DNA of 64,000 nt, taken from contig JAGVBK010000002.1 in the NCBI GenBank assembly GCA_020059745.1, positions 104,301 through 168,300 of the forward strand, read 5' to 3'. This DNA is from Candidatus Shapirobacteria bacterium. Lineage in GTDB: Bacteria; Patescibacteriota; Microgenomatia; UM-FILTER-40-11. Under the pieces are notes generated by a model. The model did not search any database. It saw nothing but the letters and a program-made list of their open reading frames with translations, and had not been told where the DNA came from. The position numbers were made by a program, and so were the translations under genes. Within the stretch, counting starts at the first letter, position 1. Each line of letters starts with the position of its first letter. Of this stretch, positions 48,793-63,477 are shown one piece after another.

Positions 48793-50100
48793 TTAGCTTG
48801 TCTTGTTTCTTAATTGCCTGAATTTGTCTTGAACTTCAATTGGTAAATCCTCTGTGGCTTTCCCCTTCTCACTGACCATGATTCCGTAGATAGTGTCAAG
48901 CACTTCCTCTGGCCTTAACTCACGACCCCCGGTTTCAAAAGATGAACGCCTTAAAATTGCGTATTCAAGTTCCAAAAGATTTTGAGCATTTTCTAAAGTA
49001 GGATTTCCTCCCCTTTTTACTGCTCTTGCCCTTAATTCAACTACTTTATCCCTCAGTCTTTCTCCATTGGTAATATAGTTTTTATCTAGCTCTCCGCTTA
49101 GATAACCTTTTATTCTATTAACCAAATCCTCTGTTTTATAAGTAAAATTATGGCTGCCCATAATTGTCCTTCCTTTAAGTGCTTCTAAAAGTTCAGAAAA
49201 AAGCTGTGAAGAAGCAATGCTTGGTTTTTCCCGAGATTTTTCTTCAGGCTTTAAAGCCGGCTCAGCCCGATATCCTGTCACTTCGGTGGCAACAACAGTA
49301 ATGTCATCTTTTTTTGCCCTGAAATGGCGGCTTTGCGCTCTTTCCAGAGCTTTTTCCACCAACCTTTTTGCCACTTGTTTTGAATTCCCAAAAAGAGCTT
49401 CTTTAATTTCCTCATCAGTCAAGTTATCGGAAACTCCGTCAGTTACCCCGATAATCCTGTCTCCGGGTTTAAGAGCCAAGACAAAAATATCAGGAAGTTC
49501 TTCTTCGTCGCTGCCAAGATAGCGAACCAGCTTATTTCTGTGCTTGTAAAAAAGACCCACCTCCGGTCTAAGATTTTTAAGTTCCGACTCATTTTTTGCC
49601 TGGTCAACCGCCTTAGCTTCGCTTGGAGTTATTTTCCCGGCATCAACCATTTCATTTAAAGGATTGTGGTCTTTGGTTATTTGTTCAAGCCTTCCGTCCC
49701 GGTAAAGGTAAACCCGGCTGTCTCCAATATTCCCAATTACTACTTTTTTTCCTCCTTCCACAAAAAGAGCAGCAACCGCAGTTGTTCCAGACTCAGGAAC
49801 TCCATTTCTAACACCTCTTCCTGCTTCAATAAAAGCTTCCTCTAAAGTCCTTCTTGCCTCAAACTCATTGCTGTTAGAAGAAAAACCTTTTAGTTTTCTG
49901 GAAAAGACCAAATTCGCCCTTGAGGCAGCCTCTTTCCCTCCTGACATGCCTCCCATACCATCAAAAACAGCAAAATTGCTTCCTTCGGTCCAAAAAGAGT
50001 CTTCGCCCTTTTCCGCCCTGTTTTCAACAGCCAAAGTAGCAGAAAGCCTTTGGCTGGTTTCCGGAGGTCGGGCAAATTCCTGAAAAGATTGGTCGCTCAT
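48793..50100 (-). CDS. PP2C-family Ser/Thr phosphatase with a roughly 180-aa C-terminal domain of unknown function
   Basis: FAVFDGMGGMSGGKEAAS, VTDGVSD and DDITVV PP2C motifs. Inserted antisense between rplA and rplJ. Confidence 0.7.
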   Translation of the reverse strand: MSDQSFQEFARPPETSQRLSATLAVENRAEKGEDSFWTEGSNFAVFDGMGGMSGGKEAASRANLVFSRKLKGFSSNSNEFEARRTLEEAFIEAGRGVRNGVPESGTTAVAALFVEGGKKVVIGNIGDSRVYLYRDGRLEQITKDHNPLNEMVDAGKITPSEAKAVDQAKNESELKNLRPEVGLFYKHRNKLVRYLGSDEEELPDIFVLALKPGDRIIGVTDGVSDNLTDEEIKEALFGNSKQVAKRLVEKALERAQSRHFRAKKDDITVVATEVTGYRAEPALKPEEKSREKPSIASSQLFSELLEALKGRTIMGSHNFTYKTEDLVNRIKGYLSGELDKNYITNGERLRDKVVELRARAVKRGGNPTLENAQNLLELEYAILRRSSFETGGRELRPEEVLDTIYGIMVSEKGKATEDLPIEVQDKFRQLRNKTS

Positions 50101-50194
50101 CTTAGACCATGATATTTTGTTTTTTCTTTCAATGCAACCAATACCATTGCCAAGAAATAAATATAAATGCTATAATATTAATAGCTTATAGTAT

Positions 50195-50530
50195 TCATTG
50201 TCTGATAGCCGTTGCCGTCGTCTTCTTCCCCCAGGAAAAGGAGGCATCGTGGCAAAGCCGGCAAGAAAGGGCAATGGATCAAAGCCTCGGGGTGAAAAGG
50301 GTCAAGCCAGGCACAGAAGCGCCAGGCCAGTCATTCCTGATCCTTCTCCACTCGTGGCAGGCGGAGACTACAGTGACGAGAATTTGTTGGCAAGAGCCGA
50401 AAGGGGCCTGCTACATTCTCTGCACATCACCTGAAGTCCCCCCTCCCCACCGGTCCGGTGTTGAAGCGCTGCTTGCAGCCCTTCTTTTTTTCACCGGACC
50501 TTTTTCTGGCTTTCTTCTACTCCCTTGCTT
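50195..50530. ncRNA. GC-rich ORF-free structured block upstream of rplJ (candidate L10 leader or other ncRNA)
   Basis: About 335 bp at roughly 56% GC, in an otherwise AT-rich gap. No convincing ORF on either strand (the plus-strand ORFs start with TTG and look like GC-driven artefacts). Contains AAAGCCGGC...AGGGCAA and GGGGUGAAAAGGGU motifs and many hairpins. A terminator-like hairpin at 50604-50656 precedes the rplJ RBS. Confidence 0.35.
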
Positions 50531-50674
50531 TTAAAACACTTTCATGCTATTATTTTTTAAGCCTTAAGACAGTAAGTGTCTGGTGAAACCGGACTTAATT
50601 TCTTACCGAGGGGACAAATTAATCTTTTGTTTTTGCCTCGGTAAAGCCGGGGTTTTTATTTTTTAAGGAGTAAA

Positions 50675-51193
50675 ATGAAAAAACAAGATAAATTTTTTGA
50701 AGTTGACAACTTAAATGCAAAAATTAAGGACGCCAAATCAGTGGCCCTGGTTGACTACCGCGGCATTACCGTCTCTCAGGCTACTGCTTTAAGAGAAAAA
50801 GTAAAAGAGGCCGGCGGTGAGCTTCAGGTTGTAAAAAATAACCTTTTCTTTAGGGCCTTAAGACAAAACGACTACGAAGTTGAAAAAGAAAAACTTGAAG
50901 GCCCTTCCCTTGCCCTTTTTGCCAACGCTGATGAGATTACTCCCCTTAAAGCTTTAGTTTCATTTGCCAAAACATCAGGACTTCTACCTTTTAAAATTGG
51001 TTTTATGGAAGGAAGAGTTCTTTCTGAGGCTGAACTTAACCGCTTTGCCAATCTTCCCAGCAAACAGGAACTGCAAGCCAAACTCGTCGGCATGTTGGCA
51101 AGTCAGCCCGGCCGTTTGGTTTATGCTTTAAACTACAACTTACAAAGACTGGCTTTAGTATTAAATGCTGTAAAAGAGAAAAAACAGCAATAA
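50675..51193 (+). CDS. rplJ: 50S ribosomal protein L10
   Basis: L10 family similarity over the whole length. rplJ-rplL synteny. Confidence 0.9.
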
Positions 51194-51641: not shown

Positions 51642-51656
51642 GGCTAAGCACACCTT

Positions 51657-51686
51657 AAAAATCCCCTCTTTCTGAGGGGATTTTTA
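51657..51686 (+). terminator. intrinsic terminator after rplL
   Basis: AAAAATCCCCTC-TTTC-TGAGGGGATTTTT hairpin followed by a T-tract. Confidence 0.8.
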
Positions 51687-51799
51687 GTGGAAAAACTACA
51701 AAAATTGTAATTGCTTGACAAGCGGTTGTAGAATACATCTATAGAAAAAAGCTAAAAAGAGGCTAAAGCGCTTCTTAACAGCTTATTTTTTGTTCTTTG

Positions 51800-52617
51800 A
51801 AAAGGGAGACAGAGTTGAAGACCGAAAGGCGAAGGCACAAAACCTTCGGCTTTCGGTCTTCAGCATTCAAGATAGCCAAAAATGGCAGAAAGGAGAACTT
51901 GGCTACGGATTAGTCGATCCGCCTTACTCACCCCCAGGAGAAAAAAGTGAGAGTAGTTACGGTCGGTTCGGCAAAGGTAGTTCCAACTATCGGGGAAGAG
52001 ATGTTCCCAATGGTCGGCTTCGGACTGGGAGTCCAAACGTCAATGGGAGGCTGTTTCGGACTTAGGTCTGACCACGATGAGTCGGTTCTTGTCTGGAACA
52101 GCCAAAAGAAGCTTCCCGAGCTGCTTGAAGAAGCAGGTATTCCCTTCGTGCAGACGGGGAAAGAGTTCACAACTACTGTTCCCGGCTGCAGGGAGACTGT
52201 AATCAAATCTGGAGAAAGATTGTCTTGGAGCTTCCCGATGCCCACCCTGACAAGCGGACACCCAAAGTTCGCATTCCTTCCCCAACCCCGGTTCGCACGC
52301 ATTGGAGAAGGAAGAAGACAATACTACCTGATCAAGCTTCTCGGCGCACTGGTCGGCACCCAAGAGGCCATTGTATGCCTCGAGTTCGGACAGTTCAGCT
52401 CAAGTTACAAGAACTTGTGCTACAAGTTCGAGCTCAAGGGGGTGGTGGCAATCGGACCAAAAGAACATCTTTTCTGGCAGTTTGAACTACCCCCAGAAGA
52501 AAGCTTTGATTCTCTTCTCAAGAGAATCAAGCTTTACTAGATCCTGGCTCGCGTGCCAATTTTCCCCCAGCCTTGCGGCACGCGAGCCTTCCGTTTGGCA
52601 CTCTCTGTCTCCCTTTT
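51800..52617. mobile_element. 818-bp GC-rich element bounded by perfect 15-bp terminal inverted repeats (candidate non-autonomous mobile element)
   Basis: Left end AAAAGGGAGACAGAG (51800-51814) and right end CTCTGTCTCCCTTTT (52603-52617) are exact reverse complements. Subterminal 13-bp and 12-bp stem hairpins sit at 51816-51860 and 52546-52588. About 52% GC, against roughly 37% in the flanks. Confidence 0.5.
51947..52540 (+). CDS. hypothetical protein encoded inside the TIR element
   Basis: 197 aa with a GTG start and AGGAGA RBS 6 nt upstream. No TM and no recognisable transposase or nuclease motif. Confidence 0.45.
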   Translation: MRVVTVGSAKVVPTIGEEMFPMVGFGLGVQTSMGGCFGLRSDHDESVLVWNSQKKLPELLEEAGIPFVQTGKEFTTTVPGCRETVIKSGERLSWSFPMPTLTSGHPKFAFLPQPRFARIGEGRRQYYLIKLLGALVGTQEAIVCLEFGQFSSSYKNLCYKFELKGVVAIGPKEHLFWQFELPPEESFDSLLKRIKLY

Positions 52618-52799
52618 GTAATTCTTCTATTTTCTTTCTCTTTTTTTTACTATAAAAACATCAATATATTTCAAAATGTCTAAAAGTATTTCACCCCTTT
52701 TATATCCTATTGACAACTTTTTAACTACTGTGATACTCTTTTGATTAGAAAAACATATTCTAAAGTTTAGTATTTTGAATTTCTCCCGAAAGGAGCTAT

Positions 52800-53015
52800 A
52801 TGCCTGATAAAAAGAATCTTAACCTGGATAATCTTCCCGACTTGCTTACTGTCCGCGAGGTAGCTGAAATTCTAAGAGTTTCTCCCCTAACCATTAAAAG
52901 ATGGGGCAAAAGAGGCAAGCTGCCGGCAATCAGAATCAATTCCAGAGGCGACAGAAGGTATAAAAAAGAAGCGGTCCTTTGGATGCTAGGTATTCAACCG
53001 AAAGACCAAATCTAA
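52800..53015 (+). CDS. helix-turn-helix DNA-binding protein (excisionase/MerR-like HTH_17)
   Basis: 71 aa. LLTVREVAEILRVSPLTIKRWGKRGKLPAIRI is a classic Xis/MerR-type HTH. Confidence 0.6.
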   Translation: MPDKKNLNLDNLPDLLTVREVAEILRVSPLTIKRWGKRGKLPAIRINSRGDRRYKKEAVLWMLGIQPKDQI

Positions 53016-63141: not shown

Positions 63142-63477
63142 ATGAAGCTGTTGCTTGATCTTTTAGTAAAAACTGCGGCAATCTTTATTTCTGCCTACAT
63201 TCTTGAGGGTGTAGTGGTCAGGGATTTTTTAACTGCTTTTATAGTTGCCATAGTTTTGGGCTTGATAAATCTTGTTATCAAACCAATCCTCATTCTGCTA
63301 ACACTACCAATAAATGTCCTTACATTGGGACTTTTTACACTTGTTATTAATGCTTTCCTTATCCTCCTTGTCGGTAGAATTGTCCCCGGTTTTACTGTGG
63401 CCAGTTTTGGCTGGGCTCTTGCCTTTGGTATTATTTTAGCTCTGGTAAACTGGTTCCTCAGCCGTATAATTAAGTAG
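63142..63477 (+). CDS. DUF360/phage-holin-4-family small membrane protein
   Basis: 111 aa with four TM helices. Matches the PF04020 family pattern along its length (LEGVxVxxFxTAxIxAxVLGLINxxIKPILxLLTLPIxxLTLGLFxLVINA). Confidence 0.65.
   Translation: MKLLLDLLVKTAAIFISAYILEGVVVRDFLTAFIVAIVLGLINLVIKPILILLTLPINVLTLGLFTLVINAFLILLVGRIVPGFTVASFGWALAFGIILALVNWFLSRIIK

Follow-up and report, generated by a model that had tools for sequence, protein, structure and literature searches.

A clade-restricted orphan gene with complementary, putatively paired mRNA ends downstream of rplL in Candidatus Shapirobacteria

When a G+C-rich open reading frame (ORF) stands between perfect inverted repeats in an A+T-rich genome, what are the repeats? 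This question is raised by an 818-bp element (51800-52617) in a 64,000-nucleotide stretch of a Candidatus Shapirobacteria genome (NCBI GenBank assembly GCA_020059745.1, contig JAGVBK010000002.1, positions 104,301 to 168,300 of the forward strand). This 64-kb stretch, hereafter the window, is the part of the genome to which the analysis was confined. A preliminary description had compared the element to a miniature inverted-repeat transposable element (MITE) or a cargo-only element inserted after rplL, and had also allowed for a structured RNA gene or a protein-coding insertion. Here we argue for a reading that we regard as moderately probable: the unit is a clade-restricted orphan gene with an end-closed, hyper-structured mRNA, and each repeat supplies one strand of an RNA helix by which the transcript is closed.

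The orphan protein gene between the repeats

The basic anatomy was confirmed (coordinates are collected in Table 1). The arms AAAAGGGAGACAGAG and CTCTGTCTCCCTTTT are exact reverse complements (15/15 positions), and a scan of the window that allowed two mismatches returned only these two matches (chance expectation 0.37). Hairpins with perfect stems of 13 bp on the left and 12 bp on the right are present as described. The left one, P1, begins one base past the left arm and continues after its 13 perfect pairs with a G.G mismatch and six further pairs, its two 20-nt arms being 95% complementary. The right one, PR, has 12 perfect pairs and a 19-nt loop, and 14 nt separate it from the right arm. 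The G+C content is 0.51 in the element versus 0.41 in the window, so the contrast with an A+T-rich context also held. The ORF starts with GTG, encodes 197 aa and is preceded by AGGAG, a ribosome-binding site (RBS). Outside the repeats the flanks read TTCTTTG on the left and GTAATTC on the right; they have no direct repeat in common, and the reported lack of a clear target-site duplication was thereby confirmed.

The ORF is a real orphan protein gene under purifying selection, because it has full-length orthologs, diverges fastest at third codon positions, has a low ratio of nonsynonymous to synonymous divergence (dN/dS) and yields a confident AlphaFold model. Searches of Pfam, PHROGs and PADLOC returned no match, in line with the motif-free protein of the preliminary description. 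A word-indexed protein search with the ORF returned a single match, a copy with 99% identity in the same species, and the same kind of search with a three-sequence profile found family members only. An exhaustive HMMER search of 1.84 billion representatives identified the true relatives P0002 and P0003 (E ~1e-14), which lie at the identical position between rplL and a helix-turn-helix (HTH) gene in L012/L013 and L014. A fourth copy, similar to that of L014, was located in L066 through lookup of the near-identical HTH protein. The ortholog set consisted of three full-length, sufficiently different sequences and one partial sequence.

The ortholog proteins align from end to end with 41-46% identity (197 aa in the window versus 168-173 aa in the orthologs), and the protein-based alignment required gaps of complete codons only, one of them reflecting 24 codons inserted in the window protein. 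Identity between the window and L012 at codon positions 1, 2 and 3 is 0.60, 0.65 and 0.32, respectively, and dN/dS is 0.08-0.22 where the synonymous divergence (dS) is finite. The RBS and the position of the start codon are conserved among the orthologs. With the four-sequence alignment, AlphaFold2 produced a model with a predicted local distance difference test (pLDDT) score of 75.9 and a predicted template modelling (pTM) score of 0.75, in which 13 strands and four short helices follow a disordered stretch of 22 N-terminal residues; the model obtained without an alignment was uninformative (pLDDT 33). A globular beta-rich fold is thus predicted, and the grand average of hydropathy is about -0.03 to -0.25. 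No protein family or fold match was found in the searches made.

Several candidate matches and calls were discarded. Profile matches in the PDB to designed 'Bagel' propellers reflect a single 18-aa motif multiplied by the repeats of these proteins. The similarity to P0004, where a repeat in a surface protein of 1853 aa was matched at E = 5e-5, falls on the 24-aa insertion unique to the window protein and was distrusted. A TTG start in the L012 gene call, just past the 5' arm (218 aa), is not conserved, as stop codons close the corresponding extension in the window and L014.

RNA folding and the proposed closing helix

Selection for folding acts on the synonymous sites of the coding sequence (CDS). 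Against synonymous-codon shuffles, which preserve the protein and the codon counts, the folding z score of the CDS is -4.9 in the window, -4.5 in L012 and -4.2 in L014, whereas the same shuffles gave -0.07 to -2.8 for the control genes rplL, rplA, wecG and rplJ. In a separate comparison, the window CDS folded by itself gave z -5.8 versus 0.03 for wecG. For the whole unit, the z scores of the window, L012 and L014 were -8.0, -15.5 and -7.0 with the folding tool's shuffles, and -10.0, -7.1 and -8.5 with our own dinucleotide shuffles. The G+C content of third codon positions (GC3) in the ORF is 0.57, 0.58 and 0.57 in the same three sequences, against 0.31-0.43 in neighbouring genes. Because synonymous sites are saturated, a GC3 held this high indicates continuing selection (or a continuing bias). 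The fold itself is branched and not rod-like, with maximum ladder distances of 102, 127 and 89 versus 116±22, 108±18 and 109±19 in shuffles. Inside the CDS, stability is conserved without a defined structure. As a separate observation, the rplJ coding region gave the lowest score among the control genes (z -2.8, 0 of 60 shuffles as low), an effect not seen in rplL, rplA and wecG.

These data bear on whether the locus is a large structured non-coding RNA gene whose ORF is a compositional accident. The very negative folding scores, the high G+C content in an A+T-rich genome and the occurrence of an equally long stop-free run in 1.2% of shuffles all suit such a gene. Nevertheless, the third-position-biased divergence, a dN/dS of ~0.1-0.2, gaps that fall between codons, the conserved RBS and start position and the confident AlphaFold2 model speak for a protein, and the internal pairs are not positionally conserved. 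Moreover, a search with Rfam 15 (riboswitches, introns, ribozymes, GOLLD/ROOL/OLE/HEARO and others) gave no gathering-score match in 51800-52617, and only noise appeared at E <= 10. We give this explanation hardly any weight. Both alternatives that the preliminary description had placed beside a mobile element, a structured RNA gene or a protein-coding insertion, were right in part: the ORF is protein-coding and its RNA is unusually structured.

Outside the CDS, the conserved sequence is concentrated in two modules of the untranslated regions (UTRs). Mean column identity is 90% in the 5' module (leader hairpin, U-tract, 5' arm and P1) and 85% in the 3' module (PR, linker and 3' arm). On this alignment both modules are conserved above the neutral level, because third positions of the neighbouring genes are only 54-72% identical (rplK, rplA, rplJ, rplL and the HTH gene, window versus L012). 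In silico folds that included the natural flanks, between the predicted start and the T-rich tail, gave the 12 core pairs of the closing helix an ensemble probability of 0.65-1.0 in all three orthologs, and the helix occurs in every minimum free energy (MFE) and centroid structure. The arms have the form A4 + GGGAGACAGAG ... CTCTGTCTCCC + U4, with a T-rich run after them, a layout also seen in the neighbouring rplL terminator.

At the inner three pairs of the closing helix, L012 has a compensatory G-C to U-A change plus one bulged A (1 nt), and L014 has a mismatch. The centre of the PR stem changes from GCG/CGC to CGTG/CACG in L012 with pairing fully kept. In P1, one A-U pair has become G-C by a compensatory double change, two G.U pairs occur in L012 and L014, and one position of the leader hairpin reads G.U, A-U and G-C across the three orthologs. 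The sense RNA is favoured as the functional strand, because the G.U pairs lie on the + strand, the + strand MFE is lower than that of the - strand in all three orthologs, and the 5' arm is preceded by a conserved promoter-like site. In addition, RNAalifold paired the invariant U-tract with the RBS region, without covariation; this predicted pairing is a candidate for a second lock.

The same arms could instead be a pair of DNA operators, in which a dimeric or tetrameric regulator binds identical 12-bp end sites and loops or represses the gene, the adjoining HTH_17/MerR protein being a candidate. In every lineage both arms carry an unchanged 12-bp core, with no Watson-Crick-neutral variation, and the gene of a highly conserved DNA-binding protein lies next to the unit, as this explanation would have it. 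On the other hand, that HTH gene belongs to the core and is found in thousands of Microgenomates without the unit, one compensatory change is found among the inner pairs of the helix, the arms have the A4 / G+C / U4 make-up of a terminator, and the ensemble pairing probability is ~1. As a DNA-level explanation it also leaves the global folding signal unaccounted for, and we consider it unlikely.

For the favoured reading, an orphan gene whose transcript is closed by a helix of its own ends, the layout would be as follows: an own promoter at ~51705-51734, a ~60-nt leader with a small hairpin and the U-tract, the 5' arm, P1, a variable leader, the invariant C5-AGGAG RBS, the orphan gene, PR, the 14-nt linker, the 3' arm and a T-rich tail. 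Here we infer the transcript start and end, pairing in vivo and an effect on stability or translation from the predicted structures. The 3' arm, once transcribed, would pair with the 5' arm, and the resulting helix (A4 tract, G+C-rich core, U4 tract) would tie the mRNA ends together with the anatomy of an intrinsic terminator stem that has the whole gene as its loop. By stacking on P1, the closing helix may form a long double-stranded end, possibly a duplex of >30 bp. Such an end could aid formation of the transcript 3' end in the following U-run, and it could shield both ends from ribonucleases or serve as an RNase III-type processing stem. Until opening or trimming, closure may also hold the message in a compact state with little translation.

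Table 1. Features of the unit and its surroundings in the window
Feature	Position	Strand	Remarks
PP2C-type phosphatase gene	48793..50100	-	between rplA and rplJ
Second G+C-rich unit	50147..50530	+	between PP2C/rplA and the L10 leader; L012 1238-1700
L10 leader	50545..50667		Rfam RF00557
rplJ coding region	50675..51193		
rplL terminator	51656..51686		
Promoter-like site TTGTAA-18-TAGAAT	51705..51734	+	from scan; overlaps invariant TTGACA; upstream of and outside the left repeat; putative function
Small leader hairpin AAGAGGC-(6 nt)-GCTTCTT	51757..51776	+	
U-rich tract AGCTTATTTTTTGTTCTTTG	51780..51799	+	invariant in 3/3 orthologs; candidate anti-Shine-Dalgarno partner of the RBS
5' arm of closing helix (left terminal inverted repeat)	51800..51814	+	12-nt core AAAAGGGAGACA invariant
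Hairpin P1, 13 + 6 bp, 7-nt loop	51816..51862	+	abuts 5' arm
Middle of 5' UTR	51863..51929	+	GCC..GGCAGAAAGG block conserved, then variable hairpin
Ribosome-binding context ACCCCCAGGAGAAAA	51930..51946	+	invariant across 14-15 nt
CDS of 197-aa orphan protein	51947..52540	+	GTG start, TAG stop
Hairpin PR, 12-bp G+C-rich stem, 19-nt loop	52546..52588	+	
Conserved 14-nt linker TTCCGTTTGGCACT	52589..52602	+	
3' arm of closing helix (right terminal inverted repeat)	52603..52617	+	12-nt core TGTCTCCCTTTT invariant
T-rich tail	52618..52648	+	probable transcript 3' end (predicted termination); end of the lineage-specific DNA, bordering on the conserved HTH upstream block
Conserved HTH upstream block	starts at 52649		first bases ACTATAA
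HTH_17/MerR gene	52800..53015		

A number of observations weigh against this reading. A loop of 788 nt is, to our knowledge, without precedent in a terminator stem. No variation occurs in the 12-bp core of the closing helix, which would equally fit a DNA site recognized by a protein, and the covariation in the 5' module is not significant with three sequences (2 of 26 pairs changed on both sides; 103 of 500 shuffles did equally well). The only MFE pairs common to all three orthologs are those of the closing helix and P1. PR followed by TTCCGTTT scored as weakly terminator-like in the scan, and a transcript that ended there would leave the 3' arm outside the RNA. As for the gene itself, a stop-free run of its length arose in 24 of 2000 shuffles, and length alone is weak evidence. 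Finally, strains L064 and L065 (SRR10812146/5) differ from the window by five substitutions within 15 nt (52493-52507) and by no others in 1.17 kb, and these substitutions weaken the outer part of a perfect hairpin in the CDS (52501-52537). The cluster, which changes two residues of the protein (P to S and F to L), looks like a multi-nucleotide event, for example quasi-palindrome template switching or a small conversion patch.

A related possibility is that the transcript, chromosomally encoded, end-closed and compactly folded over ~0.8 kb, with selection keeping its coding region G+C-rich and paired, is a dual-function RNA: it could act as scaffold or decoy and encode its own partner protein, or be a novel 'locked' mRNA that is translated only after the helix has been opened or cut; we regard this as possible, though rather doubtful. 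As a gene, the unit is an unusually clean natural example of selection acting on mRNA folding over a long time: its three orthologs have saturated synonymous divergence, and each keeps a GC3 ~20 points above that of its genome, outfolds its synonymous shuffles by 4-5 standard deviations and retains the predicted end-to-end helix and the nearly invariant UTR modules. Should the helix work in the way proposed for the end-closed mRNA, the fold-back and processing-stem logic of tiny toxin mRNAs and rRNA precursors would reach an ordinary-sized protein gene of the candidate phyla radiation (CPR), in which post-transcriptional control is essentially unexplored. The case also carries a caution: where a G+C-rich ORF is bracketed by perfect inverted repeats, these can pair as RNA and need not be transposon ends.

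Presence, absence and boundaries of the unit

The unit was found between rplL and the HTH gene in four diverged lineages (the window, L012/L013, L014 and L066). The dS between the window and L012 is 0.75-1.7 for rplK, rplA, rplJ, rplL and the HTH gene. Downstream of the unit, the HTH_17/MerR gene is followed by a WecG/TagA glycosyltransferase gene on the minus strand, as had been reported. The order rplL, HTH gene, wecG (-), mreB (-) and PEGA is widespread in Microgenomates, including relatives without the unit, and comparison of these loci indicates that the succession of rplL and the HTH gene is ancestral in the clade. The preliminary description had noted that the element lies where rpoB is expected and had suspected a rearrangement or insertion hotspot. 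Since unit-free relatives share the order, the absence of rpoBC marks no local rearrangement; what stands of that suspicion is that the rplL-HTH spacer is variable and the unit a lineage-specific gain.

The unit is absent, and the spacer between rplL and the HTH gene short, in L005, L067 and L069-L072. The L004 spacer holds an unrelated 248-aa minus-strand ORF (1968-2714) with no Pfam family. That of L006 (3860-4378) holds a different insert with ~60-nt inverted ends, which runs to the contig end and may be an assembly artefact; its ORF had no Pfam match, and a suspected IS200-like transposase was thus not confirmed. In the spacer alignment, homology resumes at the ACTATAA motif of the HTH upstream block, which in L071 stands ~7 nt after the rplL terminator. 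The empty spacers of L071, L067, L069 and L005 set the presence/absence boundaries at ~51687 and ~52648, so the lineage-specific DNA extends past the 818-bp element by 113 nt on the left, which hold promoter and leader, and by the 31-nt T-rich tail on the right. Sequence conservation likewise passes the left arm upstream into the promoter-like site, which reads TTGGAA-18-TAAAAT in L012 and overlaps the invariant TTGACA there as in the window. Because both boundaries and conservation exceed the repeats, the conserved block does not end at them. Nor does the element directly follow the rplL terminator, as had been stated; the conserved 113-nt stretch with its promoter-like site intervenes. As far as the compared loci indicate, the unit is a single ancient gain, vertically inherited within a narrow Microgenomates subclade.

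This history bears directly on the reading as a non-autonomous DNA transposon (MITE-like or with cargo), in which the repeats would be transposase-binding ends, the subterminal hairpins recognition structures, and the insertion after rplL now fixed. Perfect terminal inverted repeats with subterminal hairpins, a lineage-specific unit whose G+C content is unlike that of its host, and other inserts in the same spacer of L004 and L006 are all features that a transposon would explain. However, the unit is single-copy in the window, all homologs found occupy the same locus, and searches of 5.8 billion proteins and of 1.84 billion representatives, together with scans of metagenome and viral DNA, revealed no further copy. 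An invariant 20-mer gave four matches in metagenome contigs, all coding-sequence coincidences ('FFEKGD'). A 16-mer scan of viral contigs gave 44 matches, none similar to the unit by BLAST beyond a short stretch (<=21 nt), and BLASTN against phage genomes gave one 34-nt chance match. The locus is unchanged between lineages at dS ~1, the boundaries and conservation reach 113 nt to the left and 31 nt to the right of the repeats, no target duplication is present, and no transposase, recombinase or reverse transcriptase lies within ~10 kb. The GC3 of 0.57, kept despite saturated divergence, also points to selection and not to a recent foreign origin. A 10-nt near-repeat, ACTACAAAAA / ACTATAAAAA, does occur at the wider boundaries; it is not kept in L012.

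A transposon is thus very unlikely. The preliminary description had itself held that its proposal would fall if the repeat occurred nowhere else and repeat-bounded empty sites were never observed. By that measure the mobile-element reading fails, because no other copy was found, the breakpoints of the empty sites (~51687 and ~52648) are not the repeat ends, and enzymes of the three kinds just named are absent from the ~10-kb surroundings.

An inverton would account for the repeats in another way: a recombinase would flip the 788-bp segment between them, and a fixed outside promoter would read the gene in the sense (ON) or antisense (OFF) direction. The whole ORF does lie between perfect inverted repeats, with a promoter just beyond the left one, and the invariant repeat core is what a recombinase site would have. 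Yet all independent assemblies (~9 samples), which show the majority form, have one orientation, and no site-specific recombinase was found within ~10 kb on either side. Flipping would moreover leave unexplained the folding selection and high GC3 across the CDS as well as the G.U-containing hairpins, and we regard an inverton as improbable.

Some features beside the unit deserve mention. Between the T-rich tail that follows the 3' arm and the HTH upstream block, L014 carries ~95 extra G+C-rich bases (795-895), which are missing in the window, L012 and L066. The HTH upstream block, ACTATAA..CAATATAT (in the region 52649-52799), is conserved in unit-bearing and unit-free genomes, and so is the HTH promoter TTGACA-16-GATACT with its TG. 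The HTH gene lies outside the unit. Its 71-aa product, an HTH_17/MerR ('excisionase family') protein that had been described as Xis-like, belongs to the core gene set of Microgenomates (6450 homologs at E <= 1e-20), and it is 96-99% identical between species whose ribosomal proteins share merely 82-94%.

Similarity to known systems and a second unit nearby

By analogy, the closest functional counterparts of the end-closed mRNA are the fold-back lock of hok-type mRNAs and the processing stems of rRNA precursors, and membership in either class fails on defining features. In hok/sok-type (type I toxin) mRNAs, the 5' and 3' ends are locked by fold-back through tac-fbi pairing. The transcript of the unit would resemble them in its complementary ends (in silico), its compact folding, its candidate RBS-sequestering sequences in the leader and a folding energy far below that of shuffled sequence. 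In contrast, it encodes a soluble beta-rich protein of 168-197 aa, whereas hok-type mRNAs encode a hydrophobic membrane peptide of at most about 60 aa; an antisense RNA gene was not identified for the unit, its 5' arm lies ~60 nt inside the predicted transcript, and toxicity or 3' trimming finds no support. RNase III processing stems flank whole RNAs in bacterial rRNA precursors and some phage early mRNAs. Similarly, the flanks of the unit form a predicted long-range helix around a complete RNA, stackable on the 19-bp P1. However, this helix, a candidate for cleavage, has only 12-15 bp, and its cargo is the mRNA of an orphan protein.

Other likenesses are more limited. The arms resemble a Rho-independent terminator in their A4 tract and G+C-rich stem, followed by the second stem strand, U4 and a T-rich run; the 'loop', however, is 788 nt and contains a gene, against 3-10 nt in canonical terminators. 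Perfect 15-bp terminal inverted repeats and the lack of a transposase gene recall a MITE, from which the unit differs as a single-copy sequence at a fixed orthologous locus, without target duplication, with conservation and indel boundaries outside the repeats and with a cargo under long-term purifying selection. Inverted repeats that flank a segment with the promoter outside are shared with invertons, unlike the absence of a nearby recombinase, the single orientation in all assemblies and the RNA-level signals that inversion does not explain. A retron was rejected, as the unit has flanking repeats but no reverse transcriptase in its neighbourhood.

Obelisks are viroid-like circular RNAs that encode Oblin-1, a protein described with an N-terminal alpha-helical bundle (bioRxiv 10.1101/2024.01.20.576352, PMC13096302). 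The unit resembles them as a heavily paired RNA of ~0.75-0.8 kb with one ORF of ~170-200 aa without known relatives. This assignment was rejected, as the unit lies in chromosomal contigs at the fixed rplL-HTH locus, is not rod-like and encodes a beta-rich protein, whose model of 13 strands and four short helices differs from the helical bundle of Oblin-1 as compared by description. The Rfam search gave no ribozyme matches in the unit.

A second G+C-rich unit is present upstream (50147-50530). It has a near-consensus promoter, TTGCCA-18-TATAAT with TG (50147-50176), and a highly conserved 5' UTR with the same C5-AGGA RBS context as the 197-aa gene, CCCCCAGGA, which occurs only three times in 64 kb. 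Its fast-evolving ORF (50249-50434) starts with GTG and encodes a basic protein of 61 aa. A hairpin with a T-run is conserved at the 3' end, the folding z score is -3.6, and near that end CCTTTTTCTGG shows complementarity to the RBS region CCAGGAAAAGG. The unit occurs in L012 but not in L005, L004, L069 or L071, and it had no Rfam or Pfam match. Because it shares the RBS context and has its own 3'-to-RBS complementarity, it could belong to one regulatory class with the 197-aa gene.

The PP2C-type phosphatase gene that precedes this small unit was seen in the window species only; at the corresponding position, L012 has rplA, the small G+C-rich unit and the L10 leader, with no PP2C gene. Far downstream, a 111-aa ORF (63142-63477, + strand) among otherwise housekeeping genes matches Phage_holin_4_2, a family of phage holins (E = 3e-30).

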